Of a stretch of 64,000 bases of DNA, positions 1,758 through 37,580 are shown one piece after another; position 1 is the stretch's first letter, and every line of letters starts with the position of its first letter. The position numbers and the translations under genes were made by a program. The notes under the pieces were generated by a model, which did not search any database, was not told the DNA's origin, and saw only the letters and a program-made list of their open reading frames with translations. The DNA is from Candidatus Staskawiczbacteria bacterium (GTDB lineage Bacteria > Patescibacteriota > Minisyncoccia > Minisyncoccales > Staskawiczbacteraceae): assembly GCA_903845295.1 (NCBI GenBank), contig CAIMWV010000015.1, positions 6,354 to 70,353 on the forward strand, written 5' to 3'.

Positions 1758-3605
1758 ATGAACCCATTACTTAAAAATTTTATATTTGTCATTTTAATTC
1801 TTCTTGTTGTCGGAGGGATTTTTAGCTTGCTTTATTTCCCGACTTCAACCCCGAATGAAATATCTGCCACGCAATTAATTTCTGATATAAACAATAATAA
1901 AGTCAAAAAAATTACCGTCTCGGGAGATATATTGAACATTGTTTACACTGATAATAAAACCGCGATTTCAATGAAAGAATCCGGCACAGGATTAACGGAC
2001 TTATTGATAAACTTGGGGGTCAACAAAGACAGCCTTCAAAAAGTTGAAATTTCAGAACAGCCGGCCCAGCAGGATTTATGGTCCTGGCTGACCCCGCTTT
2101 TAGTCTTCGGCATTTTGCCCCTAATTGTGTTTGGATTTTTCTTCTGGACAATGATAAGGCAGGCAAAATCCGGCGCAGTTCAGGTATTTGATTTTACAAA
2201 AGCCAAAGCCCGCCTTTTCGGAGCCGAAGGCCATGGAAAAGAAAAAATAACCTTTAAAGATGTGGCCGGATTAAAAGAGGCAAAGGAAGAGCTGGTTGAA
2301 ATTGTTGACTTTCTGAAGTTTCCTAAAAAATATCTGGCAATGGGAGCCAAAATCCCAAGGGGAGTTTTGCTTGTAGGAGCAGCCGGAGTCGGAAAAACCT
2401 TATTGGCAAGAGCTGTTGCCGGCGAAGCCAATGTGCCGTTTTTATCAGTTTCCGGATCAGAGTTTGTGGAAATGTTTGTTGGCGTAGGGTCCGCCCGCGT
2501 CAGGGATTTATTTGCAACAGCAAAAAAATCTGCCCCATCGATAATCTTTATTGATGAATTGGATGCAATCGGGCGCCACAGAGGAGCCGGCATTGGCGGA
2601 GGGCACGATGAAAGAGAACAGACGTTAAACCAGATTTTAGTTGAAATGGACGGATTTGAGAAAGAAACGGGAGTTATAATTTTAGCCGCCACAAACAGGC
2701 CGGATATTTTAGACCCTGCTCTTTTAAGGCCCGGAAGATTCGACAGAAAAATCGTTTTAGATCCGCCGGATGTCCATGACAGAGAGGAAATTCTTAAAAT
2801 CCATTCAAAAGGAAAACCATTGGGAAAAGATGTTGATTTCAAAGAAACTGCCGAGAGAACTCCCGGATTTACCGGAGCTGACCTGGCCAATGTTGCCAAC
2901 GAAGCCGCTTTATTGGCTGCCAGACAAAATAAAACCGTTGTTGACCAGAAAGAATTTTTAGAGGCAATTGAAAAAGTTTTGTTGGGGCCTGAGAGAAAAT
3001 CCCATATTTTATCCAAAAAAGAAAAGGAAATAGCAGCATATCACGAAGCAGGACACGCCTTGGTTTCCACATTTATGCCGGATACAGAACCTGTAAGAAA
3101 AATATCGATCATTGCCAGAGGAATGGCAGCAGGATATACATTGCAAGTTCCATCAGAAGAAAGGAAAATGAAAACAAAAACCGGTTTTATGTCAGAAATT
3201 GCCACCCTGCTTGGAGGTTACTGTGCTGAAAAAATAAAGTTCGGCGAAATGACAACCGGAGCTTCAAATGATTTAAGCAGGGCTTCGGAAATGGCAAGGA
3301 AATTAGTCAAAGAATACGGAATGTCGTCTTTGGGCCCGATTTCTTTTGGCGAAAAAGAAGAGCTGGTATTTTTGGGAAAAGAAATTTCTGAACAAAGAAA
3401 TTATTCTGAAAAAGTTGCAGAAAGAATCGATGAAGAAGTTGACGTAATTATAAAAGGAGCGCAGAAACAAGCAGAGATAGTTTTATTAAAACACAAAAAT
3501 TTATTAGACAAGGTGGGAAAAGATTTGATTGAAAAAGAAACCATTGAAAAAGAAGAATTTGAAAGAATAATCGGTGTCCATAAAAATAACAGCAAAAAAT
3601 CATAA
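1758..3605 (+). CDS. ftsH: ATP-dependent zinc metalloprotease FtsH
   Basis: 615 aa. N-terminal TM helices, AAA Walker A GAAGVGKT, Walker B IIFIDELD, zinc motif HEAGHA. Confidence 0.95.
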   Translation: MNPLLKNFIFVILILLVVGGIFSLLYFPTSTPNEISATQLISDINNNKVKKITVSGDILNIVYTDNKTAISMKESGTGLTDLLINLGVNKDSLQKVEISEQPAQQDLWSWLTPLLVFGILPLIVFGFFFWTMIRQAKSGAVQVFDFTKAKARLFGAEGHGKEKITFKDVAGLKEAKEELVEIVDFLKFPKKYLAMGAKIPRGVLLVGAAGVGKTLLARAVAGEANVPFLSVSGSEFVEMFVGVGSARVRDLFATAKKSAPSIIFIDELDAIGRHRGAGIGGGHDEREQTLNQILVEMDGFEKETGVIILAATNRPDILDPALLRPGRFDRKIVLDPPDVHDREEILKIHSKGKPLGKDVDFKETAERTPGFTGADLANVANEAALLAARQNKTVVDQKEFLEAIEKVLLGPERKSHILSKKEKEIAAYHEAGHALVSTFMPDTEPVRKISIIARGMAAGYTLQVPSEERKMKTKTGFMSEIATLLGGYCAEKIKFGEMTTGASNDLSRASEMARKLVKEYGMSSLGPISFGEKEELVFLGKEISEQRNYSEKVAERIDEEVDVIIKGAQKQAEIVLLKHKNLLDKVGKDLIEKETIEKEEFERIIGVHKNNSKKS

Positions 3606-3622
3606 AGGGATTCCCCCTTTAT

Positions 3623-3696
3623 GGGCCTGTAGCTCAGCTGGTTAGAGCACGGCTCTTATAAAGCCGGGGTCGATGGTTCGAGTCCATCCAGGCCCA
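3623..3696 (+). tRNA. tRNA-Ile (anticodon TAT)
   Basis: Manual cloverleaf: gggcctg/caggccc acceptor, anticodon arm cggct-cttataa-agccg, T arm gatgg-ttcgagt-ccatc. 74 nt, no encoded CCA. Confidence 0.85.
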
Positions 3697-3723
3697 CAAA
3701 ATTGAAAAAATTAGTAAAAATAA

Positions 3724-3796
3724 GGGCGCTTAGCTCAGTTGGTAGAGCATTTACTTGACGTGTAAAGGGTCATAGGTTCGAGTCCTATAGCGCCCA
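3724..3796 (+). tRNA. tRNA-Val (anticodon GAC)
   Basis: Acceptor gggcgct/agcgccc, anticodon arm tttac-ttgacgt-gtaaa, T arm atagg-ttcgagt-cctat. Confidence 0.9.
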
Positions 3797-3892
3797 CCGG
3801 GAATTTAAAAATTTGCGAAAACTATGGGTTTGCCCAGTGATAAACACTGGGCGTCGGGTGTTAATCACCCGACGAGTCCTATAGCGCCCACA
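3797..3892 (+). repeat. tRNA-trailing mini-insert ending in a 19-bp duplicate of the tRNA-Val 3' end
   Basis: cgagtcctatagcgcccac occurs at 3779-3797 and again at 3873-3891. Two hairpins (gcccagtg..cactgggc, gtcgggtg..cacccgac) sit just before the second copy, which ends 1 nt before the RluA-family ATG. Confidence 0.6.
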
Positions 3893-4603
3893 ATGAATAT
3901 AAAAATAATTTACGAAGATGATGATGTTCTGGTTGTTGATAAGCCGGCAGGAATTGTAGTTTTCCCGGAGGGTCAAACCAAAGAAAATACCCTGATTGAC
4001 GCTTTAATTGAAAAATATCCCGAGTTAAAAAACACTGGAGAACAGCCAAGATACGGAATTGTGCACAGATTAGATAAAGAGACTTCCGGGGTTTTACTGG
4101 TGGCAAAGAACAATGAAAGCTTGATTTTTCTGCAAAAACAGTTTAAAAATAGAGAGGTAGGAAAGAAATATGTTTGCTTGGTTGAAGGAACGATAAAAGA
4201 GGACAAAGGAGAGATCAAAACTTTAATTGCCAGATCTCCTAAAGACGGGAGGAAACAAAAAGCTTACTCAGAAAATGGACCTCACCCAAAATCAGCCAGG
4301 GAGGCTATAACAGAATATGAGGTTTTAGAAAGATTTAAAGATTATACACTATTAGAAGTTGAGATTAAAACAGGCAGACGCCACCAAATACGGTGTCATT
4401 TTTCTTATTTACATCATCCGATTGCAGGAGATAAATTATACAGTTTCAAAAATTCAAAGATTCCAAAAGGCCTGATGAGGCAATTCCTGCACTCGGCATA
4501 TTTAAAAATCCAATTGCCAAGTGGAGAAATTAAAGAATTTAAATCAGAGCTGCCGGAAGAATTAAACAACGTATTAAAAAATTTACAGCCGGGCGAACAA
4601 TAA
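3893..4603 (+). CDS. RluA-family 23S rRNA/tRNA pseudouridine synthase (RluD-like)
   Basis: Track ORF 3824..4603 trimmed to MNIKIIYEDDDVLVVDKPAG. Catalytic motif HRLDKETSGVLLVAK. Confidence 0.85.
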   Translation: MNIKIIYEDDDVLVVDKPAGIVVFPEGQTKENTLIDALIEKYPELKNTGEQPRYGIVHRLDKETSGVLLVAKNNESLIFLQKQFKNREVGKKYVCLVEGTIKEDKGEIKTLIARSPKDGRKQKAYSENGPHPKSAREAITEYEVLERFKDYTLLEVEIKTGRRHQIRCHFSYLHHPIAGDKLYSFKNSKIPKGLMRQFLHSAYLKIQLPSGEIKEFKSELPEELNNVLKNLQPGEQ

Positions 4604-4692
4604 TGAATTCGGCGTAAATGAGGCATTAATGTATTCGATATATCAGATGGCCTCATTTCCGAAGTAGTCTTATTCGCTTCGCTCACAAGACC
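4592..4692 (+). promoter_or_regulatory. Two-hairpin leader RNA motif, copy A (abuts rplS ATG)
   Basis: Stem cgtaaatgaggc/gcctcatttccg around a conserved loop aatgtattcgatatatca, then hairpin gtcttat..acaagac, then c-ATG. Homologous to copies at 17996-18096, 28149-28251 and 55112-55201. Confidence 0.6.
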
Positions 4693-5127
4693 ATGATAAC
4701 ATTATTAGAAAAATTCAATAAAGACCAATTAAAAGATTTGCCGGAATTAAGGCCTGGCGATACAATTAAAGTATACCAGAAAATAAAAGAAGGAGATAAA
4801 GAAAGAATCCAGATTTTTGAAGGGTTAATTATTGCTAAAAAGCACGGTAAAGGCATTCCGGCCACAATAACCGTAAGGAAAGTTGTTGATGGAATTGGAG
4901 TTGAAAGGGTTTTCCCCATTCATTCCCCCTCTTTAAGCAAAATAGAGGTTGTAAGGCACGGAAAAGTCAGGAGATCAAAACTTTATTACTTAAGGACAGC
5001 TAAAGGACAAAGAGCCAAGCTGAAGAAAAAAGATTTTGCCGTAGCCATTGCCGAAGAACCAGTTACAGAATCGACAGCTCCAGAAAGCCCAACCGAGACC
5101 AAAACATCTGAAAAAAAGTCTGCATAA
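4693..5127 (+). CDS. rplS: 50S ribosomal protein L19
   Basis: 144 aa. [29 protein letters not shown]...[19 protein letters not shown] is typical L19. Acidic/Thr-rich C-terminal extension. Confidence 0.95.
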
Positions 5128-5142
5128 TAGGGATCTATATGA

Positions 5143-5227
5143 GCGGACGTGGCGAAATTGGCAGACGCACTACCTTGAGGTGGTAGCGCCGCAAGGCATG
5201 CAGGTTCGACTCCTGTCGTCCGCACCA
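5143..5227 (+). tRNA. tRNA-Leu (anticodon GAG), CCA encoded
   Basis: Acceptor gcggacg/cgtccgc, anticodon arm ctacc-ttgaggt-ggtag, long variable arm, T arm gcagg-ttcgact-cctgt. Confidence 0.9.
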
Positions 5228-5231
5228 CAAA

Positions 5232-5418
5232 GGGCGCTTAGCTCAGTTGGTAGAGCACTTCATTTATTCACCCCGTTAAATTTTGGACGATTAGCTCAGT
5301 TGGCTAGAGCGTCTCACTTACACTGAGAAGGTCGCAGGTTCGAGTCCTGCATCGTCCACCAAAAAATATTTAACGGGGCAAGCTGAAGGGGTCATAGGTT
5401 CGAGTCCTATAGCGCCCA
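5232..5418 (+). tRNA. Interrupted tRNA (identity unclear) whose anticodon region carries a 114-121 nt insert containing tRNA-Val(TAC)
   Basis: The 5' half gggcgcttagctcagttggtagagcacttca (5232-5262) and 3' half tgaaggggtcataggttcgagtcctatagcgccca (5384-5418) form a complete acceptor, D, anticodon-stem (cttca/tgaag) and T-arm set. Confidence 0.5.
5285..5361 (+). tRNA. tRNA-Val (anticodon TAC), CCA encoded, nested inside the interrupted tRNA
   Basis: Acceptor ggacgat/atcgtcc, anticodon arm tctca-cttacac-tgaga, T arm gcagg-ttcgagt-cctgc. Confidence 0.9.
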
Positions 5419-5564
5419 CATTATTAATTTTAAGACGCCGAAGGTGTTTTAAAATTAATAAATAATAGGTTCTATGTGGCGAGAACCTATTCCCCGAATT
5501 GTCCCGAGCCAGCAGGCGAGGGAGCAATGCCTTCGGGCAACTCTTCGAGTCCTATAGCGCCCAC
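5419..5564 (+). repeat. tRNA-trailing mini-insert ending in a 21-bp duplicate of the preceding tRNA 3' end
   Basis: ttcgagtcctatagcgcccac occurs at 5399-5419 and 5544-5564. Internal hairpins are present. The 20-nt motif gcaatgccttcgggcaactc (5524-5543) is identical to 14872-14891. Confidence 0.55.
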
Positions 5565-5574
5565 CAAATTTAAT

Positions 5575-5649
5575 GCCGGAGTAGCTCAGTGGTAGAGCAC
5601 TGCTCTGAAAAAGCAGTGGTCGAAGGTCCGATTCCTTTCTCCGGCACCA
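5575..5649 (+). tRNA. tRNA-Phe (anticodon GAA), CCA encoded
   Basis: Acceptor gccggag/ctccggc, anticodon arm ctgct-ctgaaaa-agcag. The T loop reads tccgatt, which is non-canonical. Confidence 0.85.
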
Positions 5650-5653
5650 GGGT

Positions 5654-5725
5654 GCGGGTGTCGTATAGTGGCTATTATGCAACCTTGCCAAGGTTGAGAC
5701 GGCAGTTCGATTCTGCTCACCCGCT
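5654..5725 (+). tRNA. tRNA-Gly (anticodon GCC)
   Basis: Acceptor gcgggtg/cacccgc, anticodon arm caacc-ttgccaa-ggttg, T arm ggcag-ttcgatt-ctgct. The D stem is weak. Confidence 0.8.
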
Positions 5726-5740
5726 CACCGTAGTTTACAA

Positions 5741-5770
5741 AAAACCACCTTTTAATTGAGGTGGTTTTTT
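5741..5770 (+). terminator. Rho-independent terminator after the tRNA cluster
   Basis: aaaaccacct...aggtggtttttt stem-loop with T run. Confidence 0.6.
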
Positions 5771-5803
5771 GGTAGGATAAGATAATAATTAACAATAAAA
5801 AAT

Positions 5804-6145
5804 ATGGAATTAAAATCAGGGACTATAAAACATTTACAGGAGTATGTCGACGCTAAATTAAAGGAGCGAGGATTTGCTGACGAAACATTACATGAGCGTT
5901 TGTTGCTATTAACTGAAGAACTGGGCGAGTTGGTTAATGCTTGCCGCAAAATCTCCGGCATGAATGTCGATAAAAATAGAGACATAACTAATGAGGCGGG
6001 TGAGGAAATTGCCGATATGATAAATTTAGTTTTTGCCGTTGGTATAGAATTGGGTTTGGATATTGAAAAAGAATTCTTAGAAAAGAATGCCAAAGTAGAC
6101 AAACGCATTTACAAAAGGAGTACCAAAAAAATAAAGGGCGGATAG
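5804..6145 (+). CDS. MazG-like nucleotide pyrophosphohydrolase domain protein
   Basis: 113 aa. LLLLTEELGELVNACRK and EEIADMINLVFAVGIELGLD match the small all-alpha MazG/NTP-PPase pattern. Confidence 0.65.
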   Translation: MELKSGTIKHLQEYVDAKLKERGFADETLHERLLLLTEELGELVNACRKISGMNVDKNRDITNEAGEEIADMINLVFAVGIELGLDIEKEFLEKNAKVDKRIYKRSTKKIKGG

Positions 6146-6367
6146 TTCAGTTGATAGAGCACTTCATTATTGAGCCGCAGGGTAGGGCAATTTAGTTGAT
6201 TTCCGCCCTCTCCACCGACAACCTCCGTATAAAGAACCCTTTATTCTCTATAAAATAGGTTTTAACATCATCCACTATCCCGCTCCAATATAAAAAAAGG
6301 TGCATAAACGCCTCTTTTTTGTTAAAATCACACTCTTGACAGCTGATGCTATTTTGTGTTGTAACTA

Positions 6368-6396
6368 TTGACAAGCCCCCTTTTATATGCTAATAT
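6368..6396 (+). promoter_or_regulatory. Promoter of the 3D-domain gene
   Basis: TTGACA, 17 nt, TAATAT, 32 nt upstream of ATG 6428. Confidence 0.5.
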
Positions 6397-6427
6397 ATAT
6401 GTATACTCCTTTGGGAGTTTTTTAATT

Positions 6428-6910
6428 ATGAATACATCAAAAAACAACGCTATTTTAAGGGGGGAAACCCGCTTAACTGGCTGTATATTTGCGGTTATTA
6501 TAATCGGCATCTGCCTTTTAGGGATAATTATGCCTAGGGCAACCAGCGCTGATTTTACTAATACTACTAATGCTTCATATGTGGCTAAAAATACCAGCTG
6601 GGTGCAAAAAGCTGTAAAAACAATCGATGTTGTGGTTACCGCATATTCAAGCACCCCGGACCAGACAGATGATACGCCTTTCATAACTGCGTCCGGAAAA
6701 TATGTGGCAGATGGCATAATTGCAAATAATATGTTGCCCTTTGGAACAAAAATTAGAATACCGGAACTGTATGGTAATAAAGTGTTCACTGTCCAAGACA
6801 GAATGAATAAAAATAAAAGCAAATACCATATAGACATATGGATGCCAGACAGAATATCTGCAATAAATTTCGGGGTAAAAAATGTTGAAATAGAAATTTT
6901 AGAAAGCTAA
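6428..6910 (+). CDS. Secreted 3D-domain (RlpA/MltA-like double-psi barrel) protein
   Basis: Track ORF 6368..6910 trimmed to MNTSKNN. N-terminal TM/signal segment. VVTAYSSTPDQTDDTPFITASG...FTVQDRM...IDIWM is typical of 3D-domain proteins. Confidence 0.75.
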   Translation: MNTSKNNAILRGETRLTGCIFAVIIIGICLLGIIMPRATSADFTNTTNASYVAKNTSWVQKAVKTIDVVVTAYSSTPDQTDDTPFITASGKYVADGIIANNMLPFGTKIRIPELYGNKVFTVQDRMNKNKSKYHIDIWMPDRISAINFGVKNVEIEILES

Positions 6911-6979
6911 TATTCTAAACAAAAAACCGCCGCTAAATGCGCCGGTTTTTTGTTTATATGTGAAGATATATTATTATTT

Positions 6980-7468
6980 TTATTTCTCGGGAATGGGGAT
7001 GTGGGGCACAAGCAAACGGACCTCTCTTATTTGTTTTCCCTGAAAAACTAAGGGTTTTTCCGGATCAAGGTTTAACGTAATAATGGTTCCGGCAGCATTG
7101 CCCTTAATTTCGTCTGGGTCAAAATTACCAGAAATTTTTCTTTTTGCCGACTCTTGGTCAAGAGTAACTTGGATATCTAATTCCTTGGGCCCTCCATGAC
7201 CAGGTTCTTCTTTCGCCGGCCGAACAGAAATATATGTGCGCTGGGCGGGTACAGGATTTTTTTCGCCCTTGCCGATAGCAAAAGGAAGATCCATCATCAA
7301 TCTTCTTAATTCTTCTTCCTCTCTTGATCCCTCCGACAGAAAAGATGAGTTTCCATCTTCCCGAAATTCTTCAAATTGAGGAACAATTGCGTCTCCTCCG
7401 CCTATTACTAATTCTCTATTTTCAGCCCGTTCTTGATCAAGTAACTCGTCAGATGTTTTTCTTGCCAT
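6980..7468 (-). CDS. Hypothetical protein, 162 aa, acidic N-terminal half
   Basis: ATG-initiated ORF filling the gap between a bidirectional hairpin (about 6919-6955) and the tRNA pair. No family recognised. Confidence 0.55.
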   Translation of the reverse strand: MARKTSDELLDQERAENRELVIGGGDAIVPQFEEFREDGNSSFLSEGSREEEELRRLMMDLPFAIGKGEKNPVPAQRTYISVRPAKEEPGHGGPKELDIQVTLDQESAKRKISGNFDPDEIKGNAAGTIITLNLDPEKPLVFQGKQIREVRLLVPHIPIPEK

Positions 7469-7536
7469 AAAAATTTTATTTTAAATTATTTATAAATTCG
7501 ACCTTTGAATCCTTCTCTCTAGGCCTAACTAACTTG

Positions 7537-7619
7537 TGCCCGGGGCGGGAGTCGAACCCGCATGAGGAAAACCTCGCAACATTTTAAGTGTTGTGCGTAT
7601 ACCATTCCGCCACCCGGGC
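7537..7619 (-). tRNA. tRNA-Leu (anticodon TAA)
   Basis: Reverse complement gcccggg...cccgggca, anticodon arm caaca-cttaaaa-tgttg, long variable arm, T arm gcggg-ttcgact-cccgc. Confidence 0.9.
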
Positions 7620-7648
7620 AAGGTACTGCCGCCCTCTTATCAATTTTG

Positions 7649-7720
7649 AGGCCAGGGCGAGAATTGCACTCGCGTATGTTGGTTTTGCAGACCAACGCCT
7701 TACTACTTGGCTACCTGGCC
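7649..7720 (-). tRNA. tRNA-Cys (anticodon GCA)
   Basis: Reverse complement ggccagg...cctggcct, anticodon arm ttggt-ctgcaaa-accaa. T arm gcgag-tgcaatt-ctcgc has a non-canonical T loop. Confidence 0.8.
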
Positions 7721-7741
7721 ATCTAATTTAATTTATCAATT

Positions 7742-8101
7742 TTATGACTTTTTTTCAATATTTGTTTCTTCGCCAGCTTTGACTAAGAGCTCTTCTATCT
7801 TCGCCGCCTTTGCAATTTCTGTTTCTTTAATAAATTTTATTTTGGGAATTGGCCGCATCCTTAATGTCCTGTTGATTTTATACTGGATATCATAAACCGA
7901 TTTATTCAGGGCGCGTATGATTCCCTCGGATTTTTCTTCCGGAAAAACAGAAATATAAGCCTTGGTTTCGATTAAATTTGCCGATGTATCAACTCGGGTC
8001 AGCGTAACCAAAATTTCCGGAGAAAAAGCAAAATCCTTTAAAAGAATTTTGCCGATCTCATGCTGTAACAGCGAATTTACTTTCTCTATTCTATTGCTCA
8101 T
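7742..8101 (-). CDS. rbfA: Ribosome-binding factor A
   Basis: 119 aa. RIEKVNSLLQHEIGKIL...LVTLTRVDTSANLIETKAYISVF. Located directly downstream of infB, as is usual. Confidence 0.9.
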   Translation of the reverse strand: MSNRIEKVNSLLQHEIGKILLKDFAFSPEILVTLTRVDTSANLIETKAYISVFPEEKSEGIIRALNKSVYDIQYKINRTLRMRPIPKIKFIKETEIAKAAKIEELLVKAGEETNIEKKS

Positions 8102-11808: not shown

Positions 11809-12032
11809 AAAATAATCCCGACTTCCTGATAGAAATCGTTTGACTCTATTAACGTTAAATCTATTTATTATTTATCCATTTTACCATCAGCAAGCACCCT
11901 TGTCCATAGACAGACACCATTTTTATCCCCAGCTATTCCCCATATAAAAAGAGTAAGAATCTGCCCGAAACATGCGCTTTTAGGCCGAAAAACCGCCCTT
12001 TACAGCGATTTTTTGCCGATTCGGTGGTTTGT

Positions 12033-12116
12033 GTGCCCCTAGAACCTCCATTTAAGGTTTAGGAAACCTTCGCCCTATCTTCCCCCCCCACACCAATGCG
12101 CCCTCGGGAGGAATCT
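12033..12116. pseudogene. Rearranged fragments of tRNA-Arg(CCT)
   Basis: gaacctccatttaaggtttaggaaacct.cg.cctatc and gccctcgggaggaatc duplicate parts of the intact gene at 12217-12288 but in permuted order. ccccacaccaatgc is the inverted copy of gcattggtgtgggg at 12287-12300. Confidence 0.5.
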
Positions 12117-12180
12117 CACCGGCAGTTCTCGAAAGCAACAAGGGGGCTGGAGTTTCTCAACCTTCCCAAAGACAATATAA

Positions 12181-12214
12181 AACCTGGGGCGCTAAATAGC
12201 GCCCCAGGTTTTCT
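12181..12214 (-). terminator. Hairpin terminator downstream of tRNA-Arg(CCT)
   Basis: 12-bp stem aacctggggcgc/gcgccccaggtt, loop taaata, T-rich flanks. Confidence 0.5.
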
Positions 12215-12216
12215 TG

Positions 12217-12288
12217 TGCCCTCGGGAGGAATCGAACCTCCATTTAAGGTTTAGGAAACCTCCGTCCTATCCGTTGAACGACGAGGGC
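12217..12288 (-). tRNA. tRNA-Arg (anticodon CCT)
   Basis: Reverse complement gccctcg...cgagggca, anticodon arm gaggt-ttcctaa-acctt, T arm ggagg-ttcgatt-cctcc. Confidence 0.9.
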
Positions 12289-12425
12289 ATTGGTGTGGGG
12301 CAAATTGAACAACAAGGGCTTTGTTTATTTAATACGTTAACACAATTTTTATAAAACTGCAAGTTGCTATTTTATAGATTATTCTGATATAATTATTCAA
12401 TTACTCAATATTAAAATTTAAAAAC

Positions 12426-13466
12426 ATGCCTTTTAAATCACCTATCGTAGAAATCGCAAAAAAAGTTTGTCCGGCGGTAATTACTGTCATAGTTTCAAAA
12501 GACTTGCCGAAAGCAGAGAATTTTTATTCTTTCCCTTTCGGCGGCAAAGAATACGTAATGCCGAAGTTAGAAAAGGGCCAGAAGAGCAAAGTGCAGAAAA
12601 CCACAATTGGCGGAGGGTCGGGGTTTATTATTTCAGAAGATGGTTATGTTTTAACCTCAAACCATGTGGTATCAGACACAACGGCTGACTATACTGTGAT
12701 TGTGGATCCGAAACATAAATATCCGGCCAAAGTTTTGTCACGCAACCCAATCAACGACACTGCTGTCTTAAAAATTGAAGACCATAATAAATTCCCATAT
12801 TTAGAAATGGCGGATTCGAATAAAATTGAACTTGGAGAAGAAGTGGTTGCAGTGGGAAATGCATTAGGTGAATTTACAGATACATTATCATCTGGAATTG
12901 TTTCCGGGCTTTCCCGGTTTATAACCGCGTTTGGAGGAATTGAAAATCAGATGCAAAACTTAAGGGGGCTTATACAAACTGATGCTGCAATTAATCCCGG
13001 CAACTCCGGCGGGCCTTTGATTAATATGGACTGCCAGGTTATCGGCATAAATACCGCCATGATAATGGGCGCTGAAAATATCGGTTTTGCAATTCCCATA
13101 AATTACGCAAAAAAAGATTTAGAGGAAGTCAGAAAATACGGAAAAATAATAATGCCGTTCTTGGGTGTAAAATATGTTTTAATTTCAAAAGAAATGGCAG
13201 AAGCCAACAAATTGCCGGTAAATGACGGAGCTTTGGTGGTACGGGAACAGCTGGGAGAATCGCCGGTAATAAAAGGTTCTGCAGCAGACAGGGCGGGAAT
13301 CAAAGAATGGGATATAATTTTGGCCTGCAATAATGAAAAAATCACCATGAAAAACTCATTGGCGAACATTCTGCAAAAATGCAAAATCGGGGAAGAAACA
13401 ACTTTGACTGTTCTGCGCGACGGCAAAAAAATAAATCTGAAGGCAAAGTTGGAAGAAAAAATTTAA
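12426..13466 (+). CDS. htrA: HtrA/DegP-family serine protease with C-terminal PDZ domain
   Basis: 346 aa. Catalytic His (TSNHVV), Asp (NDTAVLKI), Ser (GNSGGPL). PDZ-like C-terminus. Confidence 0.9.
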   Translation: MPFKSPIVEIAKKVCPAVITVIVSKDLPKAENFYSFPFGGKEYVMPKLEKGQKSKVQKTTIGGGSGFIISEDGYVLTSNHVVSDTTADYTVIVDPKHKYPAKVLSRNPINDTAVLKIEDHNKFPYLEMADSNKIELGEEVVAVGNALGEFTDTLSSGIVSGLSRFITAFGGIENQMQNLRGLIQTDAAINPGNSGGPLINMDCQVIGINTAMIMGAENIGFAIPINYAKKDLEEVRKYGKIIMPFLGVKYVLISKEMAEANKLPVNDGALVVREQLGESPVIKGSAADRAGIKEWDIILACNNEKITMKNSLANILQKCKIGEETTLTVLRDGKKINLKAKLEEKI

Positions 13467-14461: not shown

Positions 14462-14483
14462 GTTTATGTTTTTTTAATAATAT

Positions 14484-14560
14484 TGGTGGGCGGCTAACGG
14501 GATTCGAACCCGTACTGAGACTGCCACAGAGTCTTGTGCTGCCATTACACCATAGCCGCC
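14484..14560 (-). tRNA. tRNA-His (anticodon GTG) with G-1, CCA encoded
   Basis: Reverse complement g-gcggcta...tagccgc-c-cca, anticodon arm agact-ctgtggc-agtct. The extra 5' G pairs with C73. Confidence 0.9.
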
Positions 14561-14796: not shown

Positions 14797-14914
14797 CAAA
14801 GCCTGGATTTAAATACAAAGCAATTCGAGGGAGGATGAGAACCTCCACCCCCGGATTGCGAGCGAAGCGAGGCAATGCCTTCGGGCAACTCGGTTCGATT
14901 CCTCCCGAAGGCAC
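14797..14914 (+). repeat. tRNA-trailing mini-insert ending in a 23-bp (1 mismatch) duplicate of the tRNA-Arg(TCT) 3' end
   Basis: ggttcgattcctcccgagggcac at 14775-14797 versus ggttcgattcctcccgaaggcac at 14892-14914. The second copy is preceded by gcaatgccttcgggcaactc (14872-14891), identical to 5524-5543. Confidence 0.55.
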
Positions 14915-26738: not shown

Positions 26739-28148
26739 TTATTTAGCTTCAGTTGGATTTTCCGCGGGCTTTTCTTCAACAGCCGCATCCACTTCGCTTG
26801 GTTCTGCCGGTATTGCCTCTCCGTCTGTCCCAACTTTTTCTCCTTCGGCTTCGCTCGGGGCGGGTTCTTCCTTAGTTTTTTTAGCCTTGCCCCGCGTAGC
26901 CTTGGCGGAGTGGGGTTTCTTTTCCTTTTTTGGTTTTTCCTCTTTTTTATCTTCCTTTTTTTCTTCTTCCTTGGCAACTTCTTCCGCTTCAGCGCCCTCG
27001 GCGATTTCCTCTGCTGTCTTTTCTGCTGTTTTAATATCTATTTTCCAGCCGGTTAAATTGGCGGCCAGACGGACATTCCTGCCGTCTTTGCCGATGGCCA
27101 ATGAAAGCTGGTCTTCTGGCACAAAAACCGTGGCTGTATTTTTATCTTCAACTTTTACCCCGACGATTTTTGCCGGAGATAACGCATTAGCAATAAATTT
27201 TTCCGGCTTTTCTTCCCAAGAAATAACATCAATTTTTTCTCCGCCTAATTCATTTATAACTGCCATGATTCTTGTTCCTCTCTGACCAACACAAGCTCCA
27301 ATTGGATCAACTCCTTCTTCATTTGAAACAACTGCAATTTTTGTACGAAATCCCGGCTCTCTGGCAATTGACTTTATCACAACAACTCCGGAAGCGACTT
27401 CCGGCACTTCCAGCTCGAATAATTTTGAAATTAATTTTGGATAAGCCCTTGAAAGCATTACAACCGAACCTTTCGGAGTATCCTCCACTTTCATTATATA
27501 AAGTTTCAGGCGCTGGCTTGGCCTGTAAAATTCTCCGGGAATCTGTTCATCCCTGTTTAAAATTCCCAATGTTTTCCCGATGTCCACAAAAACCGTATGG
27601 CCCTCGACTCTCTGCACAATTCCTGAAATAATTTCCCCTTCTTTTGACCTGTATTCTGAAGAAATTGTTTCTTTTTCCGCTTCCCTTATTTTTTGCAATA
27701 TGACCTGCTTTGCAGTCTGGGCCGCAATCCTGCCATAATCCTGCTTTGAAACCAAAGGAATTTCAATCTCTTCCCCAGCCTTGATTTTCGGATAATCTTT
27801 TTTGGCATCAGCCAGCATTATATGTTTTTCGGGATTAAAAACATATTTTTTAGGCGGCTCTTCGCCTGCTCTCGCCTCATCCTGCGGAATCATTTTATTT
27901 TCTTTCATTTCTTCAATTTCCTCGTCTGTATAAAGCATTGAGTTATCCACAACTAATTTTATCTGCCAAAACTTAACATCGCCCGACACCGGGTTGAATT
28001 TGGCCTTAATTTTCTGTCCCTTTTCGCCGTAGTCTTTTTTATAGGCAGTGGCGATTGCCGCCTCAATTGTTTCTATCACCTTTTCCGGTGAAATTCCTCT
28101 TTCCTCTGCTATTTGAGCCAATGCTCCCTTAAAACCTTTTATGTCCAT
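26739..28148 (-). CDS. nusA: Transcription termination/antitermination factor NusA with Lys/Glu-rich C-terminal tail
   Basis: 469 aa. NusA N-domain, S1 domain, two KH domains (GACVGQRGTRI, AIGKDGRNVRLA). Confidence 0.95.
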   Translation of the reverse strand: MDIKGFKGALAQIAEERGISPEKVIETIEAAIATAYKKDYGEKGQKIKAKFNPVSGDVKFWQIKLVVDNSMLYTDEEIEEMKENKMIPQDEARAGEEPPKKYVFNPEKHIMLADAKKDYPKIKAGEEIEIPLVSKQDYGRIAAQTAKQVILQKIREAEKETISSEYRSKEGEIISGIVQRVEGHTVFVDIGKTLGILNRDEQIPGEFYRPSQRLKLYIMKVEDTPKGSVVMLSRAYPKLISKLFELEVPEVASGVVVIKSIAREPGFRTKIAVVSNEEGVDPIGACVGQRGTRIMAVINELGGEKIDVISWEEKPEKFIANALSPAKIVGVKVEDKNTATVFVPEDQLSLAIGKDGRNVRLAANLTGWKIDIKTAEKTAEEIAEGAEAEEVAKEEEKKEDKKEEKPKKEKKPHSAKATRGKAKKTKEEPAPSEAEGEKVGTDGEAIPAEPSEVDAAVEEKPAENPTEAK

Positions 28149-28251
28149 GGTCTTGTGAGCGAGGCGAACAAGACTACTTCGGAAATGAGGCCATCTGATA
28201 TATCGAATACATTAGTGCCTCATTTACGCTGAACTCATTATTCGCTCACCG
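28149..28251 (-). promoter_or_regulatory. Two-hairpin leader RNA motif, copy B (abuts nusA ATG)
   Basis: Sense strand: cgtaaatgaggc-actaatgtattcgatatatcagatg-gcctcatttccg, then gtcttgt-tcgcctcgctc-acaagac, then c-ATG. Confidence 0.6.
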
Positions 28252-37155: not shown

Positions 37156-37428
37156 ATGTTCTATGTTTATTTTTTATTTTTAAATAACCAAAATATTTAT
37201 AAAGGATTTACTGCCGATTTAGAAAGAAAAATCGAATAACACAAAACAGGAAGGGTTGCATCAACAAAAAATAAAAATCCGACGCTTATCCACTATGAAG
37301 CCTATCTGCTAAAAACAGATGCGGAAAGGCGCGAGAGATTTCTCAAAACTACTGAGGGCAGAAGATTGCTTAAACAACAATTAAAAGATTTACTAAATAA
37401 ATTAGGTTCGTCAGGTCATTCGACCTGA
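37156..37428 (+). pseudogene. GIY-YIG nuclease gene with in-frame TAA (37237-37239), inserted at the tRNA-Lys 3' end
   Basis: MFYVYFLFLNNQNIYKGFTADLERKIE*HKTGRVASTKNKNPTLIHYEAYLLKTDAERRERFLKTTEGRRLL... parallels the intact copy at 34152..34391. The stop replaces the conserved Glu (GAA to TAA). Confidence 0.7.
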
Positions 37429-37466
37429 CGCCCAGTCGGATGACTGGGCGAATCCTGTTGAGGGCA

Positions 37467-37495
37467 CCCTTCGACTCGCTTAGCTCGCTCAGGGC
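37467..37495. repeat. G+C-rich mini-element copy (intergenic)
   Basis: cccttcgactcgcttagctcgctcagggc. Confidence 0.5.
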
Positions 37496-37580
37496 GAACT
37501 TCTTTACAAAAGAACAAAATTAGAGTATATTATATCTATTATTAACCTTGGACGCCGGAAGCGCCCTTGTATATTAAAAA

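Follow-up and report, generated by a model that had tools for sequence, protein, structure and literature searches.

Identity of the nested tRNA locus

A 64,000-nucleotide stretch of a Patescibacteria genome (Candidatus Staskawiczbacteria bacterium, contig CAIMWV010000015.1; hereafter the window) contains a complete valine tRNA gene lying between two halves of another tRNA gene. This raises the question of whether the outer halves form a functional interrupted tRNA, or whether they are a gene broken by an insertion. The original prediction favored a functional tRNA with clamped halves, like archaeal split or intron-containing tRNAs, and offered a gene killed by a tRNA-carrying mobile element with inverted repeats as a fallback. 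We first reexamined the sequence, and the predicted arrangement was confirmed at all coordinates, apart from one small correction: the spacer after the left arm is ttt (3 nt), not tttt. The interpretation was only partly supported, since the comparative data described below support the fallback and not the headline reading.

All features are on the forward (+) strand. The 5′ half of the outer gene (5232-5262) comprises the acceptor strand gggcgct, the D arm, position 26 and the anticodon-stem strand CTTCA. The 3′ half comprises TGAAG, the variable loop (gggtc), the T arm, the acceptor strand agcgccc and A73 at 5384-5418, preceded by position 38 (C) at 5383. Outside the anticodon arm, the halves are identical to tRNA-Val(GAC) at 3724-3796, as predicted. 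The inner, or cargo, gene is tRNA-Val(TAC) with discriminator A and an encoded CCA (5285-5361), which was called by ARAGORN and scored 74.2 bits against the Rfam tRNA model RF00005 (threshold 29). Left of it lie the junction motif TTTATTCA (5263-5270), which forms the single-stranded 5′ side of an internal loop, and the clamp arm CCCCGTTAAAT (5271-5281). Right of it lie the spacer AAAAAT (5362-5367), the clamp arm ATTTAACGGGG (5368-5378) and the junction motif CAAG (5379-5382). The two arms form a perfect 11-bp inverted repeat.

We next tested whether this arrangement could arise by chance. The minimum-free-energy fold of 5225-5425 reproduced the nested double cloverleaf at -69.9 kcal/mol (z = -4.9), and 0 of 200 shuffles folded as well. 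Among 123 tRNA genes in the window and the loci collected for comparison, excluding L042-L048, only these cassettes had a flanking inverted repeat of 10 bp or more. The architecture also recurred in two other lineages, indicating that it is more than chance.

Uninterrupted alleles at the same site

To determine the origin of the outer gene, we compared the window with related contigs (designated by L numbers), using the conserved order L19, tRNA-Leu(GAG) (5143-5227 in the window), Val(TAC), Phe and Gly to identify orthologous loci. Contig L004, of the same species, had 100% identical flanks: L004 1-789 matched 4478-5266 and L004 792-881 matched 5383-5472 by BLAST, with 2 nt (CA) in place of window 5267-5382. 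The outer halves are identical to L004 755-785 and 792-827, and the L004 allele is a normal tRNA-Val(TAC) with loop TTTACAC, called by ARAGORN and scoring 74.2 bits with Rfam. The insertion is therefore 116 nt long relative to the empty allele and replaces C36 and A37 of the resident gene. Note that the boundary is ambiguous, because TTTA at 5263-5266 may be either positions 32-35 of the old loop or the first 4 nt of a conserved 120-nt unit, in which case positions 32-37 were replaced. An intact copy of the outer tRNA elsewhere had been set beforehand as a condition refuting a functional interrupted gene, and it was found here at the population level.

Eight other related lineages also carry the uninterrupted gene at the syntenic site (uninterrupted loci: L021/22, L023/25, L026, L027-29, L033, L035 and L042-46), as do three Patescibacteria genomes from GTDB with the same anticodon arm. 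The 5′ half in the window is 100% identical to the orthologous genes in L021, L023 and L026. On the other hand, the insert is present in the independent assemblies L001 and L003, and two further contigs have the same gene spacing. We considered L003 as a diverged strain carrying the insert, but its mismatches cluster in 4417-4480, so it is essentially the same strain.

We also considered a chimeric join of two tRNA-Val genes during metagenome assembly, since tRNA genes share short repeats and contigs of this species often break in this region. However, the same junctions appeared in independent assemblies from different samples and assemblers (the window, L001 and L003; L020 from JGI and L030 from ENA; L031 from NCBI and L032 from Logan), the linker sequences occur nowhere else in the window, and the L004 junction yields a perfect tRNA matching the related species. 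An artifact is therefore very unlikely.

Examination of intron and split tRNA models

We then asked whether the outer gene could still yield a functional tRNA, either by splicing of the insert or as two halves held by the 11-bp helix after excision of the inner tRNA. In favor of this, the nested double cloverleaf is the predicted minimum-free-energy fold, the outer stems are intact in the window and in L020, with compensatory differences between the two, the junction motifs and clamp are strongly conserved, and Patescibacteria carry tRNA introns in the anticodon loop, including at position 35/36 (PMC13011429). However, because C36 and A37 are missing, no single excision restores TAC, and all 8 possible 7-nt loops gave CAA, TAA or TAT anticodons on a Val-type body. 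The outer gene was not called by ARAGORN, with or without intron mode (0-300 nt), and had no Rfam hit at E ≤ 1. No group I or group II intron or any other Rfam family covered the insert at E ≤ 1 (group I: window 3000-8000), and no group I hit was obtained at E ≤ 0.1 in L030 and L031; a weak permuted-tmRNA hit (23 bits against a threshold of 47) was dismissed. The insert ends in G as group I introns do, but the junction follows A35 rather than U and ligation would not restore the mature sequence. In addition, between the 5-bp anticodon stem and the 11-bp helix there are 8 unpaired nt on the 5′ side and 5 on the 3′ side, so that no 3-4-3 register of a bulge-helix-bulge motif is possible. Neither a splicing endonuclease nor an RNA ligase appeared among about 40 ORFs scanned against Pfam in the 64-kb window, which is only part of the genome.

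The cargo has the same anticodon, so the outer tRNA would be redundant, and in L031 the outer gene has decayed while its cassette is intact. The compensatory differences in the outer stems are already present in the uninterrupted relatives, indicating that they predate insertion. Intact outer halves in the window and L020 fit recent insertion but do not by themselves exclude some RNA-level role. Taken together, a functional interrupted or split tRNA is not supported, and we regard it as very unlikely.

The cassette in three lineages

To examine whether the insert occurs elsewhere, we searched for related loci, and two more carrier lineages were found, for a total of only three, in a single large genome scan and a single large metagenome scan. 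The second case, L020 (identical to L030), is a distant relative whose L19 is 68-74% identical to that of the window. Its outer tRNA differs in acceptor stem, D loop and anticodon stem (TCGCG/CGCGG), yet the cassette is the same: cassette identity is 116/120 (96.7%) and the cargo tRNA is 73/74 identical, whereas orthologous tRNAs are 66-84% and the outer halves 76.5% identical. L034, an uninterrupted relative of L020, has stem TCGCG and loop TTTACAT, so L020 shows the same event, in which TTTA[CA]T became TTTA[TTCA...CAAG]T with the host nucleotide at position 38 (T in L020 and L034, C in the window) retained.

The third case, L031, has a diverged cassette, with linkers 39/42 conserved. Its outer gene has a 38-nt hairpin insertion in the D loop and three broken stem pairs. 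In its clamp, one pair shows a compensatory A:T to G:C change and one is a C.A mismatch. All 21 cargo stem pairs are intact in all three lineages, with 6 compensatory changes, and TTTATTCA and CAAG are invariant in all three cassettes. L020 and L031 have AAAAT as the 3′ spacer. Possible older linker remnants around the L031 outer gene were not significant (p about 0.2-0.26).

These data bear on whether the nested arrangement is ancient, vertically inherited and lost in most lineages. The linkers are more conserved than the cargo stems between the window and L031 (39/42 against about 80%), showing purifying selection on the linkers, which could in principle also explain the 96.7% identity between the window and L020. 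However, on an L19 tree each of the three carriers has cassette-free nearest relatives, so that this view would need at least five independent losses, each restoring a perfect 7-nt TAC loop although 2 nt are missing and no template exists; the Val(GAC) paralogue has a different anticodon arm. Cassette divergence far below host divergence at neutral cargo positions was seen for two lineages, and presence and absence are polymorphic within 100% identical flanks. Ancient inheritance is therefore unlikely.

Our best reading, to which we assign a probability of about 0.72, is that the locus is the resident tRNA-Val(UAC) gene, interrupted by a small, non-autonomous cassette that encodes no protein, spreads horizontally, inserts with nucleotide precision into the anticodon loop of tRNA-Val(UAC) genes whose stems differ, and supplies the replacement tRNA. 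Its conserved unit of about 120 nt consists of TTTATTCA, an 11-bp arm, 3 nt, a complete tRNA-Val(UAC), 5-6 nt, the complementary arm and CAAG. Of this reading, the spread is what the comparison shows, whereas the consequence for the host and the role of the clamp are inferred from sequence alone. In this view, the outer gene can no longer make a decoding tRNA; the cargo tRNA is probably co-transcribed with the L19-Leu-Val-Phe-Gly cluster, released by RNase P and 3′ processing, and takes over reading of GUA and GUG, so that the host then depends on the cassette. No promoter or terminator consensus was found inside the cassette. The clamp arms and junction motifs, as the conserved ends of the element, probably serve mobility, and at the RNA level they would form a helix that keeps the cargo cloverleaf folded apart from the outer halves.

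Search for a mechanism of movement

We next looked for an enzyme that could move the cassette. The 116-nt insert contains no ORF, and about 40 Pfam-scanned ORFs in the window included no integrase, transposase, homing endonuclease or reverse transcriptase; no integrase was found among neighboring genes at any of the three loci. A trans-acting recombinase, transposase or reverse transcriptase, not identified here, may be responsible. A LAGLIDADG endonuclease ORF lies between L19 and tRNA-Leu in L031, L033 and L035, but it is also present where the Val gene is intact and absent from the window and L020. Furthermore, only one cassette copy and no other clamp arm was found in the 64 kb, and the window has 61 TTTACA sites without a cassette, leaving target choice unexplained.

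The junctions fit no textbook mechanism, as there is no target-site duplication and no att-type direct repeat, and 2 target nucleotides (CA) are lost in two lineages. Conservative site-specific recombination at the shared TTTA predicts ...CAAGTTTACAC at the right junction, whereas ...CAAGC was observed. Neither a serine-recombinase-type dinucleotide crossover (CA or TT), nor IS608-type insertion 3′ of TTAC, nor IS91-type CTTG/GTTC targets fit the junctions. The arms match integron core sites (GTTRRRY / RYYYAAC) and the outer half of the E. coli dif XerD arm (GTTAAAT), but the insertion boundaries are not at G|TT and the target is not dif, so these may be coincidence. Homologous recombination or homing with co-conversion was rejected, because the 5-bp stems next to the cassette stay host-specific.

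In viral contigs, the inner and outer tRNA patterns and the right linker gave no hit, and single hits for the left linker, the clamp repeat and the type C motif look like chance (an RBS plus start codon, and coding sequence). A phage genome collection gave only generic tRNA similarity.

We also considered whether the 116 nt are an immobile deletion remnant of a larger integrative element, such as a prophage or integrase island, that carried a tRNA-Val and integrated into the anticodon loop. In favor of this, integrases of one subfamily reportedly cross over in tRNA anticodon loops (Williams 2002), the genome of the window shows elsewhere att-like duplications of tRNA 3′ ends next to small conserved elements, and mobile elements disrupt tRNA genes in archaea (PMC3293823). 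However, two distant hosts carry the same unit (120 and 117 nt, counted TTTATTCA to CAAG) with identical ends, which independent deletions would not produce. Given this, and the absence of a flanking direct repeat of the loop and of a nearby integrase at the three loci, a remnant is unlikely.

Comparison with known systems

Full-text literature searches found no report of a tRNA gene nested in a bacterial tRNA gene. Integrative elements that target tRNA genes (tyrosine-integrase prophages and islands, including the subfamily that crosses over in the anticodon loop) likewise insert site-specifically, sometimes in the anticodon loop, preserve tRNA function with sequence they bring, are polymorphic, and target the same gene in different hosts. 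However, they carry only the displaced 3′ part of the same tRNA, rebuild the target gene, leave att direct repeats, are kilobases long and encode an integrase, whereas here a whole, different tRNA gene is brought and the target is destroyed. Group I introns in bacterial tRNA anticodon loops, including the position 35/36 introns of Patescibacteria (PMC13011429), share the phylum, the loop, the nominal position after nucleotide 35, a patchy distribution among relatives, and host genes missed by standard tRNA finders. They differ in that the present insert has no detectable ribozyme core, is about half the minimum size, is preceded by A rather than U, and leaves exons that cannot be rejoined into the original loop.

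Archaeal split and intron-containing tRNAs (Nanoarchaeum split tRNAs, bulge-helix-bulge introns), and functional RNAs inside tRNA introns such as the box C/D RNA in archaeal pre-tRNA-Trp, share the formal architecture of two halves held by a helix next to the anticodon stem with a second functional RNA embedded between them. Here, however, there is no bulge-helix-bulge motif, the organism is bacterial with no known splicing endonuclease, the exons lack part of the anticodon, and the outer gene decays in one lineage. In a Caldiarchaeum population, tRNA gene disruption by a mobile element (PMC3293823) also gives heterogeneity at a tRNA locus through an insertion that brings tRNA sequence, but that case is archaeal, involves a 1.8-kb element with a recombinase, produces introns and scattered fragments, and does not place a complete tRNA inside the anticodon loop of its cognate gene.

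MITEs, REPINs and other small palindromic non-autonomous elements resemble the cassette in being roughly 100 nt without an ORF, in having inverted repeats that fold into a long hairpin, in insertion polymorphism, and in the related cargo-less repeats of at least one host genome (L020). However, the inverted repeats here begin 4-8 nt inside the left end and 4 nt inside the right end, there is no target-site duplication, one copy occurs in 64 kb, the target is strictly one tRNA loop, and the unit carries a tRNA gene, which no bacterial MITE or REPIN is known to do. The hairpin geometry fits a REPIN, although no RAYT (Y1 transposase) gene was seen among the window ORFs scanned, which do not cover the whole genome.

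Possible significance and related repeats

If our reading is correct, an essential single-copy tRNA gene can be replaced in place by a tiny selfish cassette, a route for horizontal replacement of tRNA genes, and for host dependence on the cassette, that has not been described in the literature searched. tRNA finders report a normal tRNA-Val here, and miss both the broken gene around it and the foreign origin of the presumed working copy. Given that the same loop positions are hit in genes with different stems, without duplication and with removal of 2 nt, known recombinases, transposases and introns do not obviously account for the insertion, and the enzyme could reveal a new targeting mechanism. 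A further possibility, which we consider tentative, is that this is a previously unrecognized class of bacterial mobile element, a clamp-hairpin repeat with a complete tRNA as cargo that homes with single-nucleotide precision into the anticodon loop of the cognate tRNA gene, whatever the stem sequence, and by destroying the resident gene makes the host dependent on the cargo. Repeated rounds could then replace resident tRNA genes in turn, since the window's cargo type is the decayed outer gene in L031, although how the cargo type came to differ between cassettes is unexplained.

The cassette may belong to a family of clamp-hairpin repeats that acquired a tRNA. On the 14.5-kb contig L020, two Y-shaped repeats without a tRNA have the same arm sequences, one of the repeats matches the left linker at 19 of 22 positions, and their folds have z-scores of -5.2 and -7.1. 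The tRNA loci in these very small genomes are hotspots for several families of small structured insertions.

Structure of the nested tRNA locus

We first examined the sequence of the locus in the window. Positions 5232-5262 and 5384-5418 form the acceptor stem, D arm, anticodon stem (CTTCA/TGAAG), variable loop and T arm of a tRNA, and outside the anticodon arm this tRNA is identical to tRNA-Val(GAC) at 3724-3796. Between the two halves lie TTTATTCA, the arm CCCCGTTAAAT (5271-5281), TTT, an intact tRNA-Val(TAC) with CCA (5285-5361), AAAAAT, the arm ATTTAACGGGG (5368-5378) and CAAGC. The inner gene was called by ARAGORN and was scored at 74.2 bits by the Rfam tRNA model. The minimum-free-energy fold predicted for 5225-5425 is the nested double cloverleaf, with z = -4.9 and 0 of 200 shuffles folding as well. 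Furthermore, among 123 tRNA genes in the window and the loci collected at that stage, only these cassettes have a flanking inverted repeat of 10 bp or more. The observation made in the original prediction, that a complete tRNA-Val(TAC) gene is nested inside the anticodon region of another tRNA gene, was thus confirmed.

We next asked what the outer tRNA is. Contigs encoding exactly the same ribosomal protein L19 (window 4693-5127) were looked up, and four contigs of the same species were obtained. Two of them, L001 and L003, carry the same insert. On the other hand, a third contig, L004, is 100% identical to the window over 789 nt upstream and 90 nt downstream, but has only CA where the window has 5267-5382. 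The gene in L004 reads CTTCA TTTACAC TGAAG across the anticodon arm, was called as tRNA-Val(TAC) by ARAGORN and was scored at 74.2 bits by Rfam, indicating that the outer tRNA is the resident tRNA-Val(UAC) gene and that the window carries an allele in which 116 nt have replaced C36 A37.

The original prediction had compared the two outer halves, held together by the clamp helix, to archaeal split or intron-containing tRNAs. However, no excision of a single segment can regenerate TAC, since the eight possible 7-nt loops give CAA, TAA or TAT anticodons on a Val-type body. ARAGORN in intron mode did not call the outer gene, and Rfam found no group I intron. In addition, the 8-nt/5-nt internal loop between the anticodon stem and the clamp cannot form a bulge-helix-bulge motif. 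The interpretation in the original prediction was therefore only partly supported: the split-tRNA reading was rejected, whereas its alternative, a tRNA-carrying mobile insertion, was supported.

Uninterrupted genes in related lineages

To compare the locus among relatives, we used L19 and the surrounding gene order. The named L19 homologues pointed to Patescibacteria, near Candidatus Staskawiczbacteria, and the order L19, tRNA-Leu(GAG), tRNA-Val(TAC), tRNA-Phe, tRNA-Gly is conserved. The Val(TAC) gene is uninterrupted in the loci L021/22, L023/25, L026, L027-29 and L042-46, whose L19 is 91%, 90%, 87%, 80% and 74% identical to that of the window, respectively. In the four closest of these lineages, the gene is identical or nearly identical to the outer gene of the window. 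The gene is also uninterrupted in the further loci L033 and L035, as well as in three Patescibacteria genomes from GTDB that have the same anticodon arm.

Two further nested cases

A metagenome scan for the anticodon arm of the inner (cargo) tRNA found a single contig, L020, which is identical to the ENA contig L030. The L19 of L020 is only 68% identical to that of the window, or 74% over ungapped columns. Its outer tRNA differs from that of the window, with the acceptor GGGCGGT/ACCGCCC, a different D loop and the anticodon stem TCGCG/CGCGG. Nevertheless, the same cassette sits at the same place, in the order TCGCG, TTTATTCA, CCCCGTTAAAT, TTT, the tRNA, AAAAT, ATTTAACGGGG, CAAG, T and CGCGG. 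The cassettes of L020 and the window are 116/120 identical (96.7%), while the five neighbouring orthologous tRNAs are 66-84% identical and the outer halves 76.5%. L034, a relative of L020, has the uninterrupted gene with stem TCGCG and loop TTTACAT, indicating that L020 shows the same replacement of C36 A37, with the host's own nucleotide kept at position 38. Because the host-specific 5-bp stems abut the cassette in both hosts, homologous recombination or homing with co-conversion cannot explain the transfer, and the insertion must be site-specific.

The third case, L031, is a GenBank MAG supported by the Logan contig L032. Its linkers differ from those of the window at only 3 of 42 positions, two of which form a compensatory A:T to G:C change in the clamp. 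Its cargo tRNA is about 80% identical to the cargo of the window, and every stem difference is compensated. Its outer gene, which is 85-89% identical to the cargo type of the window, has decayed: broken pairs are found in the acceptor, D and anticodon stems, and a 38-nt perfect hairpin (CGCCCTCCTAAGTTTTCTGAAAGAAAATTTAGGAGGGT, L031 2543-2580), another small palindromic insertion into a tRNA loop, is inserted in the D loop. Across the three lineages, the cargo stems are paired in 100% of cells, whereas the outer stems have 5 unpaired cells. Four of these are in L031 (three in broken stem pairs and one in the T stem), and the fifth, in L020, is also present in the functional Val(GAC) paralogue of that genome.

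We then examined the distribution of the cassette on a neighbour-joining tree of L19. Each of the three carriers has cassette-free nearest relatives. Only these three carrier lineages were found, with the genome-collection and metagenome scans limited to one each. Vertical inheritance would require many independent losses, each of which would have to recreate a perfect TAC loop from a sequence lacking two of its nucleotides, with no template available. Three gains is the simpler history. The within-species polymorphism points the same way, as does a cassette far more similar than its surroundings. These results make horizontal spread well supported.

Inferred function and mobility of the cassette

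The comparisons establish directly that the insertion destroys the resident gene, that the cargo is a complete, well-formed tRNA-Val(UAC) in every case, that the ends of the unit are conserved more strongly than the cargo stems, and that the insertion point is the same in genes with different stems. What follows is inferred from sequence alone. The cargo would be transcribed as part of the tRNA cluster; no promoter or terminator consensus lies inside the unit. It would be released by RNase P and 3' processing; a CCA-adding enzyme, RNase Y and PNPase are encoded in the window. It would then become the only reader of GUA and GUG, so that the host could not lose the cassette, although this is inferred from 64 kb of a larger genome. 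In this view, the outer halves are relics that later decay, as in L031. The clamp and junction motifs would be recognition sites for mobility, and may also form an insulating or processing helix in the precursor. We estimate the probability of the main explanation, a mobile tRNA-carrying cassette inserted into the resident tRNA-Val(UAC) gene, at 0.72.

We also looked for an enzyme that could move the unit. No integrase, transposase, homing endonuclease or reverse transcriptase was found among about 40 ORFs of the 64-kb window. A free-standing double-motif LAGLIDADG-type ORF (about 220 aa) lies between L19 and tRNA-Leu(GAG) in one clade (L031 1781-2440; L033 3516-4184; L035, L036, L039, L040) and overlaps the start of the tRNA. 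However, it is absent from the window and from L020, and its occurrence in L031, L033 and L035 does not track the cassette. The loop sequence alone cannot be the target, because the window has 61 TTTACA sites without an insert.

A possible lead came from L020, which contains two Y-shaped repeats (12214-12290 and 14463-14535). They have the same arm sequences (CCCGGTTAAAT ... TTTAACTGGG) but two small hairpins in place of a tRNA. One matches the left linker at 19 of 22 positions, for which we estimated by hand a chance expectation of about 10^-3 in all the DNA analysed. The repeats fold with z-scores of -5.2 and -7.1 and match no Rfam family, and none of them occurs in the 64-kb window. The cassette may therefore belong to a clamp-hairpin repeat family that acquired a tRNA. 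L020 also carries a diversity-generating retroelement (11856-13346), with Avd on the minus strand and a reverse transcriptase on the plus strand, and one of the two Y-shaped repeats sits in the avd-RT spacer; this position alone does not connect the reverse transcriptase with the clamp repeats or the tRNA cassette.

Comparison with known systems

The closest functional analogy is an integrative element that targets a tRNA gene and compensates for the damage it causes. Those elements rebuild the target with a partial copy, leave att repeats and encode an integrase, and none of these features was found here. Group I introns of Patescibacteria occupy the same loop, including position 35/36 (PMC13011429), but the defining core and exon restoration are absent from the present locus. 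Archaeal split tRNAs and bulge-helix-bulge introns share only the formal architecture. MITEs and REPINs share the small size, hairpin shape and polymorphism, but not the missing target-site duplication, the strict single target or the tRNA cargo. An archaeal population study describes tRNA disruption by a 1.8-kb recombinase-bearing element (PMC3293823). Full-text literature searches found nothing on a tRNA gene nested inside a bacterial tRNA gene. We regard the cassette as a mobile element that, like those already described, targets a tRNA gene and compensates for the disruption, but for which we could find no precedent in the following respects: a whole tRNA as cargo, a size of 116-120 nt, insertion into the anticodon loop of the cognate gene, loss of 2 nt at the target, and recurrence in three lineages with the cargo type of one being the outer gene of another.

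Other small elements at tRNA loci

The tRNA loci in these genomes collect several families of small palindromic elements. In the window, the 18-nt 3' end of the Val tRNAs (GAGTCCTATAGCGCCCAC, from the T loop to position 74) occurs four times (3780-3797, 3874-3891, 5402-5419 and 5547-5564), once in each Val gene and once about 95-145 nt downstream of each, with 0 expected by chance. These look like att-type duplications made by small insertions at tRNA 3' ends. An element that we call type B consists of two adjacent hairpins of about 41 nt (GCCCAGT..ACTGGGC GTCRGGT..ACCYGAC) and is present at window 3832-3873 (+) and 37409-37449 (-) and in the 3505-3527 region (-) of L020. It is inserted exactly between T-loop positions 56 and 57 (GGTTC/GAxTCC, the slash marking the site) of a partial tRNA copy downstream of an intact Val(GAC), Lys(CTT) or Val(TAC) gene, occurs in either orientation and leaves no duplication. 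In L002, a contig of the same species, the sequence upstream of the pseudouridine synthase gene (L002 1-32, compared with window 3861-3892) differs completely from the type B element plus tRNA 3' copy of the window, suggesting that this site is polymorphic too.

For a second element, type C (CCCCGAATTG ... GCAATGCCTTYGGGCAACT hairpin), the loci are window 5469-5545 and 14828-14890, the site after tRNA-Leu(GAG) in L020, L021 2627 and L023 4161. It is always followed by a copy of the T-loop-to-3'-end of the upstream tRNA, which is Val, Arg(TCT) or Leu depending on the locus. L021 lacks the whole 148-nt unit after Val(TAC) that L023, L026 and the window have, indicating an insertion polymorphism between species. 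Another small hairpin family (ACTTCGAC...GTCGAAGGG) lies next to tRNA genes, downstream of Val(TAC) in L021, L023, L026 and L027 and at about 37480-37520 (-) in the window. Other Patescibacteria carry short 5' fragments of tRNA-Val followed by hairpins just upstream of their intact Val(TAC) genes (L019 2627-2680; L010 1925-1960 (-)).

A tRNA-like relic is located at window 6137-6213. Its 5' half is 89% identical to the 5' half of the outer Val(TAC) gene through CACTTCATT, and unrelated sequence follows, ending in a strand complementary to its own acceptor start (GGGCGGA...TCCGCCC). The relic overlaps the end of a 113-aa ORF and is 92.6% conserved in L023 and L026. In addition, a 97-nt repeat, 95% identical between its two copies, lies in inverted orientation in two intergenic regions of the window, before L19 (4598-4694 (+)) and next to nusA (28146-28242 (-)). 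Finally, a tRNA-Ile with anticodon TAT (window 3623-3697) is conserved next to Val(GAC) across the clade, with orthologues in L020, L021, L023, L027, L033 and L035. Most bacteria read AUA with a lysidine-modified CAT tRNA, so that a UAU tRNA-Ile is unusual.
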